Virus record (IMG/VR): IMGVR_UViG_3300032225_000947
Span: 1 to 38,599 of that record
Reading direction: 5' to 3' (one strand)
Length of the DNA: 38,599 bases
Source of the DNA: a virus
Lineage: Duplodnaviria; Caudoviricetes
Shown: in pieces, positions 1,402-23,623 of the stretch
Layout: each line of letters opens with the position of its first letter
Numbering within the stretch: the stretch's first letter is position 1
Notes under the pieces: generated by a model
Databases searched by the model: none
The model's input: the letters and a program-made list of their open reading frames with translations, nothing else
What the model was told of the DNA's origin: nothing
Translations under genes and position numbers: made by a program

Positions 1402-2548
1402 CGCGGGTTCGACTGTTCCGCAGGCTTCTTCGGCCAGGTTGGTGTGGGAGTCGGGGGTGAAATATAACCCTGACGGCACGCAGACGGTGACGTTGCCTGA
1501 GTGCCCTGAGATCGCCCCTGAAGGCTATTTAGAGGCTCTTGAAGGGTTTCTTGGTGTTATTCCTGCTGGTTACAGTTTCCGGCTCACTGAGGCCCGTCAC
1601 GATCCTGCCGCATGGCATAGGGATGGTGAGGGTGAGGATGCTGTCACAAGACCTATTTGGCGTTACAAGTTCCAGATTTTCCCTGACCACAACAAGATAC
1701 CTGTTGATGATCTGTTAGGGAATCTTCGTAAGCCGCGTGATATCAAACCGGTATCAGATACGGCTGGTGCGCTTTTAGTATGTGCCGGCGATTTACAGAT
1801 TGGGAAAAGCGATGGGGCGGGAACACCGGGAACAGTTGATAGGTTCATGGAAGCGCACCGCGCTAGCCTTAAACGCTATAGCGAGCTGCGTCGTCGTGGT
1901 GTTGTGGATGACGTGGTACTTGTGTGGGCCGGAGATTGCATTGAAGGGTCAGAAACGCAAGGCTCCAAACTTTTGGCGCGCTTGGATTGCACGATCACGG
2001 AAATGGTTCGCATCTACCGGCGGCTAATGCTTGAGCAGGTACAGGACTTCGCGCGCATTGCGTCTAAGGTTCTTGTGGCCGTGGTGCCCGGTAACCATGA
2101 TGAAGCGAAGCGTGTGGGTGACCAGTTGGCTACGAGGTATGACGATTCTTGGGCGATTGAGGGTGCGAGTGCTGTCGCTGATGCTCTTCATGTGGGTGGT
2201 TATACAAACGTGGACTGGTTGTTCCCCGACACGGACGGCCTCGATGTTACGTTTGATGTGAAAGACACCCGTATTGGGGTGTTACATGGGCATCAGACGC
2301 GGGGCAAAATGGAAGCATGGCTGGGGGCTAAAGCGGTGCAACGCCTTGCAATTGGAACAGCAGATGTTGTTATTTCAGGGCATTACCATCATTTGAAGAT
2401 CACTCAGCTGGGGCCGACGACGCATGTGCAGATTCCTGCGATGGATTCGGGTTCAGTGTGGTGGGGGCATAAGGGTGGTTTGAATGCCCCACCAGGAATG
2501 GTGACGATGATTGTTAATGATGGTTGGCGGGGACTGGAGATTTTATGA
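1376..2548 (+). CDS. Calcineurin-like metallophosphoesterase (Mre11/SbcD-type fold)
   Basis: Motifs GDLQ, GDCIEG, GNHDE, HGH, GHYHH; GTG 1376 follows GGAAGGAG. Confidence 0.85.
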   Translation: MSLIQKLADAGSTVPQASSARLVWESGVKYNPDGTQTVTLPECPEIAPEGYLEALEGFLGVIPAGYSFRLTEARHDPAAWHRDGEGEDAVTRPIWRYKFQIFPDHNKIPVDDLLGNLRKPRDIKPVSDTAGALLVCAGDLQIGKSDGAGTPGTVDRFMEAHRASLKRYSELRRRGVVDDVVLVWAGDCIEGSETQGSKLLARLDCTITEMVRIYRRLMLEQVQDFARIASKVLVAVVPGNHDEAKRVGDQLATRYDDSWAIEGASAVADALHVGGYTNVDWLFPDTDGLDVTFDVKDTRIGVLHGHQTRGKMEAWLGAKAVQRLAIGTADVVISGHYHHLKITQLGPTTHVQIPAMDSGSVWWGHKGGLNAPPGMVTMIVNDGWRGLEIL

Positions 2549-2802
2549 GCCTGGAATCTGAGGCCGTGAAACTTATTAAGGGCGACCGGGGATTAACGTA
2601 TGGGACCCCTCAGGAAGGGTTAGGTCGGATTGCTCGGCTGTGGAGTGCCTACCTTGAACGCGAGTTAACGGTTGGTGATGTCGCTAGACTTATGGTGTTG
2701 CTGAAACTGGCAAGGGCGCAGGGCGGTTATTCTCACGATAGTTATGTTGACCTTGTTGCTTATGCTGTGATCGCGGAGGAATCTGATGGCCGTCCCCACT
2801 AA
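2545..2802 (+). CDS. DUF6378-like protein (nucleotide pyrophosphohydrolase-related)
   Basis: DRGLTYG.P...RIARLWSAYL...MVLLKLAR...DSYVDLVAYA; ATGA overlap with upstream stop. Confidence 0.75.
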   Translation: MSLESEAVKLIKGDRGLTYGTPQEGLGRIARLWSAYLERELTVGDVARLMVLLKLARAQGGYSHDSYVDLVAYAVIAEESDGRPH

Positions 2803-2992
2803 AGATGCAGTGATCCGTATCGGTTTTGGGATGCTGTATGTGCAGATTATGGCTGAGGGTCATGCCGGTAACCCTGATGTTTTGGATGATATGACTCGTC
2901 GGGCGATTACAGCTTTTAAGGAAGCTGCGACTGCCGTTGTGGAGTCGGGGTTGAATGAGGCAATCCTTGATGATGAAGAAGAAGTTGAATGA
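2786..2992 (+). CDS. Hypothetical protein with acidic C-terminus
   Basis: GGAGG RBS; fills the gap and is coupled to the next gene. Confidence 0.6.
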   Translation: MAVPTKDAVIRIGFGMLYVQIMAEGHAGNPDVLDDMTRRAITAFKEAATAVVESGLNEAILDDEEEVE

Positions 2993-4089
2993 CGGAGTAC
3001 CGTTATCTTTTTGCTGATTTGTTGACGAATCAGATTAAAGCCGAACTTCCTCTTTCCCAAGTGAGTTTCGGTCAGGAGTTGAATACTTCTGGATCATTTT
3101 CGGGGAAACTGCTGCTATCTGATTTGCGTGAGGCTGTTTACAGTATTGATACGGCTACGACTCCGGCGAGAACAGCCGTTTATGTGGATCGTGATGGAAC
3201 GATTGTGTGGGGAGGGGTGCTATGGAATCGTTCCTATGATTCGGCGTCTCAGTCTATGACGTTCACGGGCCGCGAGTTTGAGTCTTATTTTGAGCGCCGG
3301 CGTATCAATTTCACTTATAACTCGGCCCAAGCTTCGCAGGATCAGCTTCTTGTCGTGCAGAACTTGTTTAACACTGTTCAGGGTAGTGCTGGCAGTAGTA
3401 CCAATATTGGTGTTCAGGTGGGTACTGAGACTTCGGGAGTGAGTGTTACGAAGTATTACAACTATTACGATTTGAAGCCTTTGACTGAGGCTGTGTATGA
3501 GTTGTCGCGTTCAACTACGGGGTTTGACTGGAATATTGATGTTGCATACGACTCGTCGTACAACATTATTAAGACTTTGCATTTGGAGTATCCGCGTCGT
3601 GGCATCGTGTACGGGGTTAACGATACTTATGATCCGGTGCTTGAGTTCCCTGGCAACATCATTGCCTACACTTATCCTGAAGAAGGCTTCCAAGTAGCAA
3701 ACACCCTGTATGGCATTGGTGCGGGTCAGACCATTGGCAAACTGATTTCTGTTCAACAGGACGCTACCCAGATAACTAATGGTTGGCCGACACTTGAAGG
3801 ATCAGTTTCCTACACGGATTACGACTACCAGCCGTTGCTCGATAACCTGACATTGGCACAGTTGAACGCTACGAAGAATCCTGTTGTGGTGATGCAGGTT
3901 GTTACTACTTCTTACAATGAGCCGATTCTTGGTTCTTATAAAACTGGTGATGATTTCCGTATCAGGATTACTGATGACAGATTTCCAACAACATTGGATG
4001 TGATTCGCCGTTTGGCGAAGTACGAAGTTCAGGTTGGGGATAATGGTCCTGAGCGTGTCACGTTCTCTTTTGTTGTTACGACTAACTAG
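2989..4089 (+). CDS. Minor tail/baseplate hub protein (siphovirus Gp37-like)
   Basis: YRYLFADLLT...AELPLSQVSF...LN.SGSFSG, VDRDGTIVWGG and GDDFRIRITD, typical of actinophage minor tail proteins. Confidence 0.75.
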   Translation: MTEYRYLFADLLTNQIKAELPLSQVSFGQELNTSGSFSGKLLLSDLREAVYSIDTATTPARTAVYVDRDGTIVWGGVLWNRSYDSASQSMTFTGREFESYFERRRINFTYNSAQASQDQLLVVQNLFNTVQGSAGSSTNIGVQVGTETSGVSVTKYYNYYDLKPLTEAVYELSRSTTGFDWNIDVAYDSSYNIIKTLHLEYPRRGIVYGVNDTYDPVLEFPGNIIAYTYPEEGFQVANTLYGIGAGQTIGKLISVQQDATQITNGWPTLEGSVSYTDYDYQPLLDNLTLAQLNATKNPVVVMQVVTTSYNEPILGSYKTGDDFRIRITDDRFPTTLDVIRRLAKYEVQVGDNGPERVTFSFVVTTN

Positions 4090-8447: not shown

Positions 8448-8587
8448 TTCGGCATGGGGGGCCATTGCGCTGGGCGCTGATCTTTTTCTTTCGCACATCC
8501 ACCGCAGTCTGTTGACCACCAGACTCCGTGTGAGCAGTAGGTTCCTACTCGGGCAAGGTTCTTTCGGTATTCCCATACATCATTCAT
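8444..8587 (-). CDS. 47-aa Cys/His protein (MNDVWEYRKNLARVGTYCSHGVWWSTDCGGCAKE...), not in the ORF track
   Basis: Read by hand; overlaps both neighbours by coupled start/stop codons; CxH...CxxC. Confidence 0.6.
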   Translation of the reverse strand: MNDVWEYRKNLARVGTYCSHGVWWSTDCGGCAKEKDQRPAQWPPMPK

Positions 8588-9110
8588 GTGTTAGTCCCCA
8601 GAAGTAGAGATCGTGCGCGACCTCATTAACAGTGAATTCGTGTTCGCGGAACATTTCTTTTAATGGCATAACTGAAGTGAAGTCTTCAACAGTCAGGTTT
8701 TTGTAGTAGTCCCATCGCCCTACAGTGAAGGGGGAACACCACGGGTCTTGGCGGCTTGTTCCATGCTCGGGTCGACCCTCGCCGGCACAAGTAAAGACCA
8801 CTAAACCTTTAGACATTCGATGCATGTTTATGAATGTTTGTACCCAGTAGGGGTTGTGTTCAAAGCATTCAGCGCTGATGGTGATGTCAAAGCTGCGGTC
8901 GGGGTAGTCAAGGTCTTGGCCGGGAGATATGACATCTACACCGGGGCCTGGTTCTAGATCTACTCCGGTGTAGTCGCAGTTGGTGAAGTAGTCGCGGAGT
9001 GTGCCATTGATGTTGAGGCTTCCGATTTCTAGGACTTTCACGTCTTGGAAGTATTGGGGGAAGCGTTCTTTAATGCTGGTGATGTATTCCTGTTGTTCGC
9101 GGTGGCTCAT
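8580..9110 (-). CDS. Class I SAM-dependent methyltransferase (small-molecule/glycan type)
   Basis: VLEIGS.NINGT...YTGVD...GPGVDV...FDITISAECFEHNPYW. Confidence 0.85.
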   Translation of the reverse strand: MSHREQQEYITSIKERFPQYFQDVKVLEIGSLNINGTLRDYFTNCDYTGVDLEPGPGVDVISPGQDLDYPDRSFDITISAECFEHNPYWVQTFINMHRMSKGLVVFTCAGEGRPEHGTSRQDPWCSPFTVGRWDYYKNLTVEDFTSVMPLKEMFREHEFTVNEVAHDLYFWGLTHE

Positions 9111-9502
9111 GGTTTCTCTCCGTCCATAATCATCATCCCGATGTAGTGAGCAACGTTCACTGTCACCGCATTACCCATCTGCTTGTAACGGTTAGAGTCG
9201 GCTTGTCCAGCAGTCCAATTGTCTGGGAAGCCTTGTAGCCTTTCGCACTCTAATGGAGTGAGCCTACGAACTCCTTGACTATTCATTGCGGCCATCCCCC
9301 CCCCTCCAGTGCGTAGTGTTGGTGTGACAGATTCTGATGCTTGTATATCTAATCCTTGAGTGTGACTGAAAGTAATAATTACTGTCGCGCGTGTCTCCGT
9401 AGCGTTATCAAAGGCGTTCAATGTTGGACTCACCCCCCCCCGCACCCATGTCTCATGGTCTTCATCACTCATGGCTCTTCGTGATTTCGTCCACACGTCC
9501 AT
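9107..9502 (-). CDS. C5 DNA methyltransferase C-terminal subunit (TRD-like cassettes plus motifs IX-X)
   Basis: RRLTPLECERLQGFP (IX) and YKQMGNAV (X); SPTL/TPTL cassettes; own GGGGAG RBS. Confidence 0.85.
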   Translation of the reverse strand: MDVWTKSRRAMSDEDHETWVRGGVSPTLNAFDNATETRATVIITFSHTQGLDIQASESVTPTLRTGGGGMAAMNSQGVRRLTPLECERLQGFPDNWTAGQADSNRYKQMGNAVTVNVAHYIGMMIMDGEKP

Positions 9503-10376
9503 TTGTCTCCCCGATGATTAGCATGTCGTTGTAGGCGTCCTGCCCGTTGTATGAGCCGGGGTGTGCGCCAGCTGTGAACGTTCCGACTGTTGCCTGGTAA
9601 GTACGAGAGATTCCGTGTCGGGGTCGTAACGTATCCCGGTTCCGGTTGTCACGGTGCTGGCTACTTCTTGCATGCTGCTGCTGCTCGCCAGTCTCTCTCT
9701 CTCTCTCTGCTATTACTAAGTGATTGGCTTGTCCGGCATTGTCGTCAGGACCACCGCTTCCAAAGCCCTTTGTAAGGCTTCCGGCAATGTCCGACCGCGC
9801 CGGTTGGCGCGCCTCAAGATGCCTTGGCACGCCCTCGCGCTCAAGAAATAACGCTCGTCCACTGTCTCCTCCAGAACGTCCGATAATGAACAAGCGACGG
9901 CGGCGTTGGGGGACTCCGAAGAACTGCGAATCCAGAACCCTCCACTCGAGGTGGCTATACCCTGCGTCGGCCAACGCAGTGAGGATGACTCCGAAATCGC
10001 GCCCTCCGTTGCTTGATAGAAGTCCTGGCACATTCTCCAAGACGATGAGTCGCGCTTGGACATGGGACGCGAAAGAGAGTGCGTCCCAGAACAAGCCAGT
10101 TCGTTCCCCAGCAAGACCTGCACGTCTTCCTGCGACGGATACGTCTTGGCAGGGGAATCCTCCGCAAACAAGGTCGGTTCTTCCCACGAGGCCCAGCTCA
10201 TCGGCCCACTCCTTCGCTGTTGTTACGTCATCGTGTTTAGGTACTTTTGGCCAGTGCTTTTCTAGGATTGCGCGAGCGTTTTTATCTATTTCTACTTGGC
10301 CGAGGCAGGTCATTCCTGCTTGCTCAAAGCCGAGGTCAAAGCCTCCAACTCCTGCGAATAGGCTGACGAATCTCAT
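9465..10376 (-). CDS. C5 DNA methyltransferase N-terminal catalytic subunit (motifs I-VIII)
   Basis: FAGVGG (I), GGFPCQD (IV), ENVPG (VI), PQRRRRLF (VIII); lacks IX-X. Confidence 0.9.
   Translation of the reverse strand: MRFVSLFAGVGGFDLGFEQAGMTCLGQVEIDKNARAILEKHWPKVPKHDDVTTAKEWADELGLVGRTDLVCGGFPCQDVSVAGRRAGLAGERTGLFWDALSFASHVQARLIVLENVPGLLSSNGGRDFGVILTALADAGYSHLEWRVLDSQFFGVPQRRRRLFIIGRSGGDSGRALFLEREGVPRHLEARQPARSDIAGSLTKGFGSGGPDDNAGQANHLVIAERERETGEQQQHARSSQHRDNRNRDTLRPRHGISRTYQATVGTFTAGAHPGSYNGQDAYNDMLIIGETNGRVDEITKSHE
9518..9673 (-). CDS. Out-of-frame 51-codon TRD-like cassette (MQEVASTVTTGTGIRYDPDTESLVL...)
   Basis: Read by hand in the +1 frame just downstream of the (AG)8 tract; resembles the in-frame cassettes. 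Confidence 0.4.
   Translation of the reverse strand: MQEVASTVTTGTGIRYDPDTESLVLTRQQSERSQLAHTPAHTTGRTPTTTC
9692..9708. repeat. (AG)8A microsatellite in the MTase variable region
   Basis: tctctctctctctctct on + strand, encoding ERERE. Confidence 0.9.
9716..10201 (-). CDS. Nested alternative-frame protein inside the MTase gene, resembling the M.EcoHK31I beta polypeptide
   Basis: 161 stop-free codons in the +1 frame; SLRWPTQG...CSLSDVLE...YFLSARACQGILRRA.RRG..LP..L pattern (resemblance recalled, not searched). Confidence 0.65.
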   Translation of the reverse strand: MSWASWEEPTLFAEDSPAKTYPSQEDVQVLLGNELACSGTHSLSRPMSKRDSSSWRMCQDFYQATEGAISESSSLRWPTQGIATSSGGFWIRSSSESPNAAVACSLSDVLEETVDERYFLSARACQGILRRANRRGRTLPEALQRALEAVVLTTMPDKPIT

Positions 10377-10489
10377 TTTTTTCCTTTGTTGCGCCAGCGG
10401 CGTTCATCAATCTCGGCACAAATCCACCATGTCACAGACCAGACAATGAAAGCCGTTACGCATATCGCGGGGAATATGACCAGAATCAT
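10373..10489 (-). CDS. 38-aa single-TM protein (MILVIFPAICVTAFIVWSVTWWICAEIDERRWRNKGKK)
   Basis: Read by hand; ATGA overlaps at both ends. Confidence 0.6.
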   Translation of the reverse strand: MILVIFPAICVTAFIVWSVTWWICAEIDERRWRNKGKK

Positions 10490-10869
10490 TCGGTCACCGC
10501 TGGCCGGCAGATCGCGCACTTCTCAACGGTTAGATACTTGACCTCAATATTCGGGTCGGGATCAATCCAGCCTTTGTAACACAAGCGGTGAGTGCATTTG
10601 CATCCAGTCCTACCGCAATGAGAATCAAGATCAACATGGTTAATGATCTTCAGACGTGAGTGATCACCCCAAGCCTTATTCAATGCTGATGGGATCAGCA
10701 TGTCTCCGGTCTTACCGTAATGGTTCTTGACGTATTCGCTTGCCCATGTGGTTTCCATACGGTTATCAAGGACATTGCTCCATGCCATGACGGTTGCTTC
10801 ATCGGGCTGTATACGTCCGTCAAGCGATCCGACGAAAGTTAGCATCACTGCAACTTCAGTTATGTTCAT
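10486..10869 (-). CDS. Putative helicase loader/inhibitor-like protein downstream of the initiator
   Basis: Position equivalent to lambda P; D.R...TVMAW..VL N-terminus and Cys-rich C-terminus. Confidence 0.5.
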   Translation of the reverse strand: MNITEVAVMLTFVGSLDGRIQPDEATVMAWSNVLDNRMETTWASEYVKNHYGKTGDMLIPSALNKAWGDHSRLKIINHVDLDSHCGRTGCKCTHRLCYKGWIDPDPNIEVKYLTVEKCAICRPAVTE

Positions 10870-18775: not shown

Positions 18776-19127
18776 CGGGCCACGCTCCAGACGTATCCGT
18801 AGCGTGCTGCCAAGCGTGCGCGCTTCGCAGTGTGTGCGCGTAGGTCAATCTTCATTGCCTCTCCCCACATTGTCGGTTGCCACGTGTGTGGCATGGGGAA
18901 AGTGTAGCCCCCGTCAAGGGTAGGGGGATACCATGTCAAGGACCAAACACATTGCAACTTGATAACGGAATATCCACAAGCTGTCCCCCTAGCACGTCCC
19001 CCCAACCTGGCCCGAAAGAACTACCGGGAATTCCCACAATCCCGATAGGAAAAGCCGGCGCGCATTAGGGGGGGGTATATTTCCTATTCGTGTGGGAATC
19101 GGTCCCTAACGGTTTGGGGTGTGTGTG

Positions 19128-19595: not shown

Positions 19596-20859
19596 TGAGC
19601 AGTTGCCTCCTGAGGGTGTGTGGTCTTCGTGGTTGTTTGTTGCTGGGCGTGGTGCGGGTAAGACTCGTACTGCTGCTGAGTGGGTTGCGGCACAGGCTAC
19701 GTCGTCTAAGTGTCGTGTGGCGGTGGTGGGGCCGACGTTTGCTGATGCTCGGGATGTGTGTGTTGAGGGTGATTCTGGTTTGTTGGGGGTGTTGCAGCGG
19801 TATCGGGTGGTTGATTCGTGGAATAGGTCCCAGGGGCAACTCCGGTTGACTAATGGTTCGCTGGTGCGGTGTTTTTCGGGGGAGGAGCCGGAGCGTCTGC
19901 GTGGTCCTCAGCATCATTTTGCGTGGATTGATGAGCTTGCTGCGATGCCTCGGCAGCGGGAGATTTGGGATCAGCTCAGGTTTGGGTTGCGTCTTGGTTT
20001 GAAGCCTCAGGTGGTGGTGACGACGACTCCTCGCCCGACGGCGTTGATGCGTGAGTTGTTGGCTCGTGATGATGGTTCTGTTGCGGTGTCTCGGGGTTCA
20101 ACGTTTGATAACCGGGCGAATCTTGCCCCTGATGCGTTGAAAGAACTTATGGCTAGGTATGAGGGCACTCGTCTTGGGCAGCAGGAGTTGTTTGGTGTCC
20201 TTTTGGAGGACGCTGAGGGGGCTTTGTGGAAGATCGGTGTGCTGGATAGGAACCGTGTTCATAAGGCTCCTGATGATGTTGTGAGGCGTGTCATTTCAGT
20301 TGATCCGGCTATCACTCAAGGTGGTGATGAGACGGGCATCATTGTCTGTTCCAGGGACCGTAATGGTCATGGGTTTGTTGAGGCGGATCATTCAATGCGT
20401 GGTGCGCCGATGGATTGGGCGCGGAAAGTTGTGTCAGCTTTTGACCATTACGAGGCTGATGCGATTGTTGTTGAAGTGAATCAGGGCGGTGAGATGGTCA
20501 CTCAAACATTAAGAACTGTTCGAGATAACCTGCCGATTAAAGAAATCCGCGCATATAAGGGTAAGAAGTTGCGTGCAGAACCAGTAAGCGCCTTGTATGA
20601 ACAGGATCGTGTCCACCATGTTGGTGTGTTGGAGGCTCTTGAGACGCAGATGACGACGTGGACGCCGGACGATAGAACTTCACCTGACCGTCTTGATGCT
20701 TTGGTGCATGGTTTGACGGAGTTGATGATGTCTGGTGGGACGGAAGCATATTTGCGTAGTTTGTCGGTACTATGCTCTTGCGGAATGCCCAACACGACTG
20801 GCTCCGTTGTTTGCTCGTATTGTGGCGCGGTCTTAGGAGACGATGGTGGGTTGGCGTGA
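19516..20859 (+). CDS. terL: Terminase large subunit with C-terminal Zn ribbon
   Basis: Walker A GRGAGKT, LRGPQ..AWIDE, VVTTTP, SVDPA, DRLDALV; TTG 19516 follows GGGAGG. Confidence 0.95.
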   Translation: MPNSSLVLGKHIVAASRMVWEGQLARSEQLPPEGVWSSWLFVAGRGAGKTRTAAEWVAAQATSSKCRVAVVGPTFADARDVCVEGDSGLLGVLQRYRVVDSWNRSQGQLRLTNGSLVRCFSGEEPERLRGPQHHFAWIDELAAMPRQREIWDQLRFGLRLGLKPQVVVTTTPRPTALMRELLARDDGSVAVSRGSTFDNRANLAPDALKELMARYEGTRLGQQELFGVLLEDAEGALWKIGVLDRNRVHKAPDDVVRRVISVDPAITQGGDETGIIVCSRDRNGHGFVEADHSMRGAPMDWARKVVSAFDHYEADAIVVEVNQGGEMVTQTLRTVRDNLPIKEIRAYKGKKLRAEPVSALYEQDRVHHVGVLEALETQMTTWTPDDRTSPDRLDALVHGLTELMMSGGTEAYLRSLSVLCSCGMPNTTGSVVCSYCGAVLGDDGGLA

Positions 20860-23623
20860 AGGCGTAGCGAAAGCTCTCAACCTTCCTGTTGGGGCTGTGA
20901 CGCAGACTGAGCAGCAGATTGCGGCACAAGTTCCGACATCTGGAACTACAGCCACACCTTTGGAGCGTCGACCTGAGGACTATGTTGTCCCGTTTGCTCC
21001 AGGCCGGCCCCTTATCCCGTCACTGATTAACGTCCCGCGTGAAGATGGCCGTTCCGCTCCTCGCCGTTCAGAGTTCCCTGTCGCGTGGAACCTTCAAATC
21101 ACTGAACAGCGTGTTGTACCGTTCCGTCTTCTCAGAGATGTTGCTGACGGCTCGGATATTGTCCGTAAATGCATTGAGGTAGTTAAGTCTGCTGTTATCG
21201 GTATGCAGTGGGACATTGTGATGTCCCCGGATGCGACTTCCCGCATTATGACGGAGCCAACAACGACAGGTCATACTGCTGCCAGCCGTGAAGCCCATGA
21301 TCGACTGTTGCCGGATGTTCTGCGTTGCCGCGACTTCTGGAGTATGCCCGACCGGATCAACGGCCTGTCGTTCCCTGAATGGGTCGGCATGGCTCTTGAG
21401 GAAATGCTTGTCATTGATGCTCTCAGCATTTACCCGAATAAGACCCTTGATCAAGAAAACTTGCATTCGCTTGAAATTCTTGACGGCACAACGATTAAAC
21501 CTCTCTTGGATGATCGTGGTGGCCGTCCGGTTCCCCCACATCCTGCTTTTCAGCAGATTCTTTGGGGTTTCCCCCGTGGAGAATTCGTTTATACAGCTGA
21601 CGCTGATGGCGAATTCACTGCCGACGACCTGATTTACGCCCCCCGCACCCGTAGGCCGTTCTCCCCCTACGGTTTGAGTGCAGTTGAGCGTGCCCTACCG
21701 ATGATTGACCTGTATATGAAGCGCCTCCAGTGGCTGCGTACGGAGTTCACTGATGGTGTGACTCCTGACGTGTTCATGGAGACGGATGCTTCGTATGGCG
21801 GCAATCCTGAACTTCTTCGCGCCTATGAGCGTATTTTCAACGACGATCTGGCCGGCAAGACGGAGCAGCGGCGTCGCGCACGGATGCTTCCTGAGGGTAT
21901 GCACCCGATTTTCCCGCCAGGTTTGGATGTTAAATACTCCCCAGACTTTGACGAGTACCTTGTTAAGCAGATTTGCGGTCATTTCGGTGTAATGCCGACA
22001 CAGATCGGTTTTTCACCTAAGGGTGGTCTTGGTGGTAAGGGTATTCAGCAAGGTGAGGCTGCTTCTCAGGAAGTTTTGAACATTAAACCGATGGTGATGT
22101 GGCTCACCGACCTGTGTAACCAGTTGTCGTACAAGTTCCTCAACATGCCGCGTGATCTAACGTTCAAGTTCACTTACGAGAACGAGATCGCTGACGATAG
22201 AGCGGCGAAACGTCGTGAGGAAATGCTCACTTCGGGACAGATCACGATTAATGAGGCTCGAGCTGAGCTTGGTTACCCGCTTTTCACGTTCCCTGAGGCT
22301 GACATGCCTTTCGTGAGCGTTAATCTGATTCCGGCGGGTAACGTGCAGGAGATCCTCGCCGGCGATGGCGTGCAAGTGGAGCATCCTGAAGATATTGGGC
22401 ACGAACATCCCGAGGAGAAGCCTGAGCAGCCTGAGCGTCAGGAAATGCACTCGGTGGAAACTCCCGTTAATCGGCCTAAGTCTGTTGAGGCTAACCCGAT
22501 CAGCATCGAGTTGAACGCTTTTGCTAAATGGACTAAAGGGTCGCGCAAGCGACCATTTATGTTTGAGTTCCTCGACACGGACAAGAGCAAGGCCCTTAAC
22601 GCTTTAGCGCAGCACGACCCCAACGCTGCTAGGGAACTGGCTTTCGTTTTCAAAGGCAAAATGAAGACAGAGAACGGCAAGCAGTATCCGGCGGCAGCTT
22701 TTGCTTATGTTCCTGACGCCGACAAGCCGTCAACCTGGAAACTGCGCCTGTGGGAGGACGACAAGCCGACCGCCGCTCAGGTGGGTAGGGCTGTTGCTGC
22801 TTTGGGTGAAGGTTTCCGTGGGAACAAGGTTGAGATTCCTGCGAAGGATTTGTCTGAGGTGAAGGCGAAGGTTCGTGCCGCGTGGCAGGAAGTTCACGAC
22901 AAGGACGAGGAACTCCCTGACCTGTTGAAAGGCGCGAGCGTGTCGGTGGGTTCTTTCGTGTCGTGGGATTCGTCAGGTGGTACGGCTCGCGGCAAAGTTG
23001 AGCGCGTAGTTAATGACGGAAAACTTAATGTGCCCGATTCGTCTTTCGCTATTACGGGGACTGAGGATGATCCGGCTGTGTTGATCCGCGTTTATCACGA
23101 GGGCGAGGATGGTTGGGAGCCTACGGATACGCGGGTGGGGCATCGGGCTTCTACGTTGACGCGGATTGAGGCGTTGAAGGCTGCTGATGGTTTTACTCCT
23201 CCGAAGGGTGTGCGTGAGGCGGCGAAGCGTGCCCTTGAATGGATTAAGGAAGGCCATGCCGGTGACGGTTTCACAGACACGGGCCGTAAGCGTGCAGCTG
23301 ACCTCGCGGCTGGGAGAAGCCTGTCTGCTGAGACGGTTAACCGGATGCGTTCGTTCTTTGCCCGTCATGGGGTTGACTCTAAGGCTGAGGGTTTTAATTC
23401 TGGTGAGGATGGTTTCCCGTCACCGGGACGTGTGGCTTGGGATGCGTGGGGCGGCGATGCCGGTAAGTCGTGGGTTGATTCGCTGAATACTGATAAGTCC
23501 GTGAAGGCGAGTGATGCCGGGGGGCGAGACGTTACCCCCAGGCACATTGGGGGCGACACACCAGCACGAGGTAGTGTCAACGGCGAGGACGCTTCTGGAG
23601 CATTCTCTTGGAATCGACGCTGA
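20843..23623 (+). CDS. Portal protein with three appended C-terminal domains (926 aa)
   Basis: SPYGLSAVE, ICGHFGVMPTQIGF and ITINEARAELG portal motifs in the first about 500 aa. Confidence 0.88.
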   Translation: MVGWREGVAKALNLPVGAVTQTEQQIAAQVPTSGTTATPLERRPEDYVVPFAPGRPLIPSLINVPREDGRSAPRRSEFPVAWNLQITEQRVVPFRLLRDVADGSDIVRKCIEVVKSAVIGMQWDIVMSPDATSRIMTEPTTTGHTAASREAHDRLLPDVLRCRDFWSMPDRINGLSFPEWVGMALEEMLVIDALSIYPNKTLDQENLHSLEILDGTTIKPLLDDRGGRPVPPHPAFQQILWGFPRGEFVYTADADGEFTADDLIYAPRTRRPFSPYGLSAVERALPMIDLYMKRLQWLRTEFTDGVTPDVFMETDASYGGNPELLRAYERIFNDDLAGKTEQRRRARMLPEGMHPIFPPGLDVKYSPDFDEYLVKQICGHFGVMPTQIGFSPKGGLGGKGIQQGEAASQEVLNIKPMVMWLTDLCNQLSYKFLNMPRDLTFKFTYENEIADDRAAKRREEMLTSGQITINEARAELGYPLFTFPEADMPFVSVNLIPAGNVQEILAGDGVQVEHPEDIGHEHPEEKPEQPERQEMHSVETPVNRPKSVEANPISIELNAFAKWTKGSRKRPFMFEFLDTDKSKALNALAQHDPNAARELAFVFKGKMKTENGKQYPAAAFAYVPDADKPSTWKLRLWEDDKPTAAQVGRAVAALGEGFRGNKVEIPAKDLSEVKAKVRAAWQEVHDKDEELPDLLKGASVSVGSFVSWDSSGGTARGKVERVVNDGKLNVPDSSFAITGTEDDPAVLIRVYHEGEDGWEPTDTRVGHRASTLTRIEALKAADGFTPPKGVREAAKRALEWIKEGHAGDGFTDTGRKRAADLAAGRSLSAETVNRMRSFFARHGVDSKAEGFNSGEDGFPSPGRVAWDAWGGDAGKSWVDSLNTDKSVKASDAGGRDVTPRHIGGDTPARGSVNGEDASGAFSWNRR

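Follow-up and report, generated by a model that had tools for sequence, protein, structure and literature searches.

A phage C5 DNA methyltransferase whose parts are spread over three overlapping genes and probably form one enzyme

Can three overlapping ORFs, none of which carries a complete set of C5 DNA methyltransferase motifs, together specify one methyltransferase? This question is raised by a complete phage genome of 38,599 bases with direct terminal repeats, referred to below in its entirety as the window. The locus belongs to a minus-strand replication and recombination block which also holds a replication initiator, an exonuclease, RusA, an HNH protein and SSB, and at its two ends the locus overlaps the adjoining genes by four bases. 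It comprises three minus-strand ORFs, designated alpha, beta and gamma (Table 1), the start codon of each being preceded by a purine-rich word. A Pfam search yields two PF00145 matches in the window, both of them inside this locus, profile positions 1-249 falling on alpha and positions 259-322 on gamma. Motifs I-X, including the catalytic PC, the ENV and the Gly-Asn of motif X, are complete and spread over two chains rather than one. The original prediction, made from the DNA letters, had assigned motifs I-VIII to alpha, motifs IX-X to gamma with a ribosome binding site of its own, and a nested 161-codon ORF to the +1 frame of alpha; coordinates, ORF map and Pfam search agree with it on all these points. 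The scanned neighbours also include a SAM-dependent methyltransferase (phrog_32762, 8580-9110), which overlaps the gamma stop and in whose place one relative (L003) harbours a different methyltransferase-like gene. A scan for promoters and terminators gave nothing exceeding shuffles. Outside the block, at 20843-23623, we observed a 926-aa portal protein whose C-terminal extension includes a match to the Hva1 Tudor domain.

Table 1. Coordinates of the features of the methyltransferase locus within the window.
Feature	Position	Strand	Description
Alpha chain	9465..10376	-	303 aa; motifs I-VIII, PC 75-76, ENV 114-116
Alpha tail	within 9465..10376	-	poorly conserved linker over the beta core, then modules A and C; without motifs IX-X
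Beta chain	9716..10201	-	161 aa, +1 frame within alpha; without motif IX
Beta SD-like word AAGGAG	10209..10214	-	7 nt before the beta ATG
Conserved beta core L106-L147	9761..9886	-	begins within motif VIII's final part; predicted to pack against gamma motif IX
Module A, TRD-like	9714..9797	-	alpha frame
(AG)8 repeat	9692..9708	-	from the repeat scan of 38.6 kb
Module B, 51-codon ORF	9518..9673	-	+1 frame; alpha does not read it at the current repeat length
Module C, TRD-like	9513..9590	-	terminal module of alpha at the current repeat length
Gamma SD-like word GGGGAG	9507..9512	-	precedes the gamma ATG (9502, 4 nt) and an in-frame GTG (9496)
Gamma chain	9107..9502	-	131 aa; modules D and E, motifs IX and X
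G9 tract in module D	9433..9441	-	in frame in the window
G9 tract closing module E, ahead of motif IX	9296..9304	-	in frame in the window
Motifs IX and X	9128..9271	-	in gamma

Beta finds no match in Pfam or NCBIfam. It matches phrog_16143 (E 3.8e-12), the family to which the beta subunit of phage MM1 belongs. In M.EcoHK31I both chains are required and beta holds motif IX (PMC2836561, in excerpt). We located a copy of this enzyme (L090), an E. coli gene beside a restriction endonuclease, by means of a primer printed in the supplement of PMC2836561, and the start of its nested 176-codon ORF agrees with the beta primer given there. The window's beta is 33% identical to M.EcoHK31I beta over 96 aa (E 4e-16) and 41% identical to MM1 beta over 95 aa, while alpha shares 44% identity over 204 aa with M.EcoHK31I alpha. 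In the window, EcoHK31I, MM1 and three cluster J phages the beta core lies seven codons past the motif VIII Gln, and because of this identical register the alpha/beta overlap is to be regarded as homologous. The likeness to M.EcoHK31I beta which the original prediction had noted is thereby borne out, as is its statement that the nested ORF lacks motif IX, which sits on the third chain.

As in the window, beta of M.EcoHK31I is described as wholly contained in alpha, in the +1 frame and in the same register (PMC2836561 and PMC3404938, both in excerpt). In M.EcoHK31I, however, motif IX is on beta and the TRD and motif X are on alpha, whereas in the window motifs IX and X are on the third ORF. In addition, a restriction endonuclease gene adjoins the M.EcoHK31I copy, whereas no cognate one is present among the scanned neighbours of the window's locus, the ORF just upstream having no assigned function. 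The window's enzyme would be solitary and would likely protect the phage DNA from host restriction. Since the GenBank record of MM1 names alpha and beta subunits and the overlap has been described in S. thermophilus phages, MM1 and a streptococcal transposon (PMC5601072, in excerpt), the nested beta gene as such was already known. The loci of MM1, Tn5252 and the S. thermophilus 5093-group resemble that of the window in being phage genes with a nested beta devoid of motif IX. They differ in that their alpha continues through IX-X on one chain, whereas alpha of the window stops at 9465 before IX, and in that they hold an A7 run only, without the G tract and the dinucleotide repeat which the window both has. 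Only the third chain is thus new, because a phage beta lacking motif IX was known from MM1. Compared by description, M.AquI shares with the window a break in the variable region and the placement of IX-X on the smaller chain, but the excerpt of PMC3404938 describes it as two chains and mentions no nested gene, in contrast to the three ORFs seen here. The pair of genes Omega 127/128 and its relatives in cluster J phages show the same three-ORF layout with a G tract after beta, although the cluster J records examined annotate two genes and miss the nested one. Excerpts of PMC11855218, PMC2884959, PMC3706429, PMC3711429 and PMC4210602 hold nothing on a three-ORF layout, and neither a three-chain C5 methyltransferase nor a choice between modules by repeat length was found in the mainly open-access literature searched. 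As judged by sequence comparison, the three-ORF locus is conserved and belongs to the EcoHK31I/MM1 family of methyltransferases, to which it adds an AquI-like split.

The beta core is found in 4,156 clusters at E values up to 1e-10 and in 322 of 50,697 GenBank phage records. Matches to beta also occur in 572 plasmid records, many of them lying beneath genes of 80-130 kb E. coli and Salmonella plasmids whose annotation is Dam-family methyltransferase, and five beta-like proteins (P0167, P0182, P0209, P0213, P0224) carry an HNH domain on the same chain. In a sister group (L069, L077, L079, L084, L086-L089) the +1 ORF keeps the N-terminal hairpin, lacks the beta core and contains short Pro-Thr-Pro repeats; in most members it also holds a motif IX-like segment, and motif X is on alpha. 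In L066 (positions 2300-3000) an insertion in motif VIII breaks both frames and holds a third-frame ORF that by eye appears HNH-like, the beta core continuing in the +1 frame behind it; out-of-frame HNH insertions have been described in phage methylases (PMC11855218, in excerpt). Five short fusions of an alpha start to a beta end (P0054, P0075, P0112, P0189, P0238), all of them devoid of motif VIII, were excluded as likely products of gene calling or deletion.

Beta is a real gene kept by selection. A match to the beta profile is present in the +1 frame of all of the best 80 of at least 598 viral loci, chosen by alpha alone (80/80; nine of them match only over the N-terminal half). Removal of copies more than 95% identical from these best 80 of at least 598 left 69 non-redundant loci, which are related to one another. 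From motif IV to just past motif VIII the +1 frame is stop-free in 67 of the 69, against 3.2 expected from synonymous shuffles, while the +2 frame of the same stretch is open in 3 (4.0 expected). The stops in the nested frame of homologues which the original prediction had named as speaking against it are accordingly absent from nearly all of them. Not one of 300 synonymous shuffles left the window's own +1 frame open between motifs IV and VIII (printed fraction 0.0). Over motifs I-III, which served as the upstream control, the +1 frame is open in 20 of 54 loci (11.2 expected), and because it exceeds expectation there too, the shuffle null has to be considered somewhat lenient. The suppression of synonymous variation proposed at the outset as a further check is likewise seen. 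In 15 of 17 close sequences, two being left out for different spacing, alpha shows a four-fold synonymous difference of 0.66 in motifs I-III but of 0.25 and 0.19 across motifs VI-VIII. Past motif VIII these 15 sequences show an identity of 0.20 in alpha versus 0.57 in the +1 frame, which varies most at its third positions, and one of them has stops in the alpha frame. Selection, in other words, passes from the alpha frame to the beta frame after motif VIII. In a second set of 80 metagenome loci chosen by gamma, 14 are without one end, and all 66 which hold motif VIII as well as IX-X contain the beta core in the +1 frame (66/66). A start codon with an SD-like word at most 30 codons before motif IV is present in 56 of 70 non-redundant loci (raw count, window included).

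In one-chain enzymes a similar segment following motif VIII would pack on motif IX. From the models and homologues described below we infer that beta supplies in trans what would otherwise be the beginning of the variable region. Of the 69 loci from the best 80 of at least 598, 36 carry motifs IX-X on alpha, 12 have them on a third ORF and one has both on beta, while nine have IX on beta and X on alpha and 11 are unclassed. As motif IX is thus found on alpha, on beta or on a third chain, the post-VIII clamp rather than motif IX suggests itself as the essential part of beta. Among the 120 listed of 229 longer beta homologues found, beta is fused to IX-X in 51 and to IX alone in 47; by our own motif patterns none of these 120 has motifs I-VIII and the beta core on one chain. 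In two fusions the dcm profile runs over the beta core from positions 180 and 169, and its match on alpha ends at 163, just before the part covering the beta core in these fusions; such a run is seen in only 1 of 28 fusions of one set, plus P0105, and not in the other 27.

Co-folding of alpha 1-230, gamma and beta 40-155, as suggested in the original prediction, gave a score of 0.71, compared with 0.35 for the best of three controls. This mark is reached by 116 of 157 solved complexes and by 2 of 215 mismatched pairs, counts which hold only roughly for the present job with its three chains and our own alignments. The runs agree in at least 49% of contacts, with a partner pLDDT of at least 62, and the best-defined predicted contacts are those of beta 109-120 with gamma 78-89 (motif IX) and of beta 81-83 with alpha 143-145. 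The result may reflect likeness to solved one-chain methyltransferases. Folded alone, beta reaches a pTM of 0.33, only residues ~105-155 being confident and the first 90 of low confidence, and a fold search with this model returned nothing above Z 4.7. A natural beta-IX-X fusion folded poorly (pTM 0.30) and matches solved methyltransferases weakly, over short stretches of 32-56 columns, for which reasons the position of the beta core is not confirmed through the fusion model. Searches of solved sequences with the beta and core profiles found no methyltransferase, and direct searches of solved structures did not show the packing of such a segment on motif IX.

Residues 40-124 of gamma align with residues 228-317 of M.HhaI. 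A quick tree places the window in a clade of 24 rows (SH-aLRT 98), 17 of which are split, 4 fused and 3 unclassed. The split is also seen in 27 of the 66 gamma-chosen metagenome loci holding both ends, and motif IX lies outside the alpha ORF in 9/9 cultured cluster J mycobacteriophages examined. Recurring in 17 of 24 clade rows and in nine cluster J phages, the alpha/gamma split is therefore no assembly error, and an assembly frameshift at 9465-9502, considered from the beginning as a possible objection, is countered by the conservation of the split across clade, metagenomes and cluster J. Since fused and split relatives are mixed within the clade, the tree suggests that the split arose repeatedly. 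A contig of depth 53.5 is identical to the window over 8900-10600 and may be its own source; a low-depth contig, which comes from a second sample in that contig's study, spans the alpha/gamma junction and has no indel at this point.

How the parts relate to each other is, in our opinion, best described by three chains. The locus encodes the parts of a C5 methyltransferase on three overlapping genes whose products, as sequence and models taken together indicate, probably form one enzyme. Each chain would have its own start on one operon; beta would supply in trans the stretch which follows motif VIII in one-chain enzymes, running along the motif VII strand of alpha and clamping motif IX of gamma according to the prediction, while alpha would read the DNA of the beta core as an unselected linker. 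The three-chain enzyme joining both split architectures, as originally proposed, thus finds support in homology, in the conserved split and in the co-fold. We consider it unlikely that there are two chains only, alpha and gamma being joined by a ribosomal +1 frameshift or by slippage to give an MM1-type enzyme. It is true that many loci place gamma in the +1 frame relative to the module before it and that a Val-Val over Trp-Phe overlap recurs among them, that 13 of 24 split loci lack an SD-like word before gamma, that 4 of the 24 clade rows are fused, and that in L014 one base fewer in a G tract joins alpha to IX-X. Yet in the survey of starts (25 split loci examined, the first gamma module being located in 24) a start codon lies 0-3 codons before this module in 23 of 24, many of these starts being TTG and 11 of 24 being preceded by an SD-like word. 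Furthermore, the relative frame of gamma is +1, +2 and 0 in 9, 9 and 6 loci, altering one repeat would suffice to join the chains in only 1 of 21 loci and not in the window, and two low-depth contigs match the window up to the gamma ATG and diverge just beyond. Start placement and the three relative frames would fit separate initiation of gamma better than one programmed frameshift. In L002 (3150-3290) a small Cys-rich ORF between module C and gamma overlaps the gamma start.

Slightly less probable still appears a beta which, though real, acts as a regulator or accessory dispensable for the fold, leaving alpha and gamma as an AquI-like pair. It would be in keeping with the lack of motif IX, the sole named motif of EcoHK31I beta, and with the low confidence of the first 90 beta residues folded alone. 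This is opposed by the fusion of beta to IX or IX-X in 98 of the 120 listed longer homologues, by the absence of selection on alpha's own sequence past motif VIII, and by the fact that the best-defined contacts of the model are those of beta with motif IX. As highly improbable we regard a decaying or mis-assembled one-gene methyltransferase: frame changes do adjoin simple repeats, where errors arise, and the comparison rests on assembled contigs, but dozens of independent contigs and nine finished genomes share the split, the catalytic motifs are all intact, and the changes seen in IX-X and module B fall on third positions.

In the stretch from beta to motif IX the three-ORF locus contains five recurring modules, A to E, in mixed frames, on which, as on the simple repeats of this variable region, the original prediction was silent. 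Module E aligns with the recognition region of M.HhaI and is the only one to align with a solved TRD; A to D are labelled putative TRDs by place and pattern. Module A recurs in 11 other loci or proteins, where it sits on alpha, is part of beta-chain proteins or occupies a different frame. Module B differs from its counterparts in L001 and L002, where it is in frame with alpha, at its own third positions in 11 of 14 and 14 of 19 cases, and from that of a contig from another study in all 8 listed cases; each of the modules B and C is under selection in its own frame, and changes in motifs IX-X likewise fall on third positions. A four-unit trinucleotide repeat (9673-9684) directly precedes the ATG of module B. 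Multispecific C5 methyltransferases of temperate Bacillus phages possess arrayed TRDs (PMC12707154, in excerpt). According to the same excerpt they resemble the window in having several recognition modules in a row in a solitary phage enzyme, but their modules are proven and lie on one polypeptide, whereas those of the window are predicted and distributed over chains and frames.

The only two nine-base runs of the genome, both G9, lie in this locus, and (AG)8 is the only dinucleotide repeat of at least 5 units in its 38.6 kb. One extra AG unit would end alpha with module B instead of C, the state found in L001 and L002 with a CT repeat; AG, CT and CA are three kinds of repeat unit at the equivalent junction. 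The 17 close loci contain 11 repeats in 11.2 kb of variable region versus 2 in 61.9 kb elsewhere, carried by only 6 of the 17, and none of 52 distant loci has a repeat there. Among the rows bearing the module D tract, 3 of 19 are out of frame, versus 0 of 15 rows without it (a few rows being duplicates). In six cluster J phages, devoid of any substitution over ~1,010 bases, tract length alone differs, with G8 in one, G9 in three and G10 in two; G8 and G9 each put a different conserved module on alpha, and G10 gives a short tail. The G8/G9 contrast returns between Omega and Lucky2013 and Porcelain, and repeat length also varies in L019/L020. A coding simple repeat variable among otherwise identical genomes thus exists in cluster J and L019/L020; homopolymer lengths in assemblies can possibly be errors. 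For the window itself one low-depth contig alone differs, and a relative from another study (depth 3.4) shows no gap across the (AG) repeat, with only 4 bases beyond it covered. The only other homopolymer of at least 8 in the window, a G8 run at 19068-19075, immediately precedes the terminase region, in which several ORFs of the two strands overlap.

Evenly balanced, to our mind, is the view that the five TRD-like modules correspond to several target sites, with (AG)8 slippage swapping C for B and the G9 tracts switching gamma off and on. Slippage might moreover select which frame-overlapping module joins the catalytic chain, in an enzyme of three or four chains, so that siblings methylate different sites; this further step we propose rather tentatively. 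A quite conceivable alternative, falling not far short of an even case, concerns this switching step only: the enzyme would consist of three chains and the repeats would be tolerated noise, with dispensable alpha tails and gamma setting the specificity, or with module B as a fourth small chain. It would account for alpha ending almost at motif VIII in L022-L025, for the short tail as the only one in the G10 cluster J phages and for the possession by module B of an ATG of its own. It is less easily reconciled with both alternative tails being conserved modules of other phages, B and C selected in their own frames, and with three different repeat units at the equivalent junction. A study of contingency loci in phages, which also cites a Bordetella phage methylase with a poly-G tract, describes, as here, simple repeats within genes whose length varies among near-identical genomes (bioRxiv 2025.10.21.683753, in excerpt). 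The frameshifts of that excerpt are reversible ones, whereas two of the three states seen here lead to conserved modules that differ from each other. If true, the choice of module by slippage would amount to specificity switching by frame selection, unlike on/off phase variation or DNA inversion, and the cultured cluster J phages with their different alleles, G8 in Dove, G9 in Dallas and Beem and G10 in JuicyJay, make the idea directly testable.

The natural three-way split marks tolerated break points for the engineering of split methylases. The beta core is widespread and yet escapes Pfam and NCBIfam, as well as the annotation of the cluster J records examined. Many phage methylases filed as truncated may be complete multi-chain enzymes.
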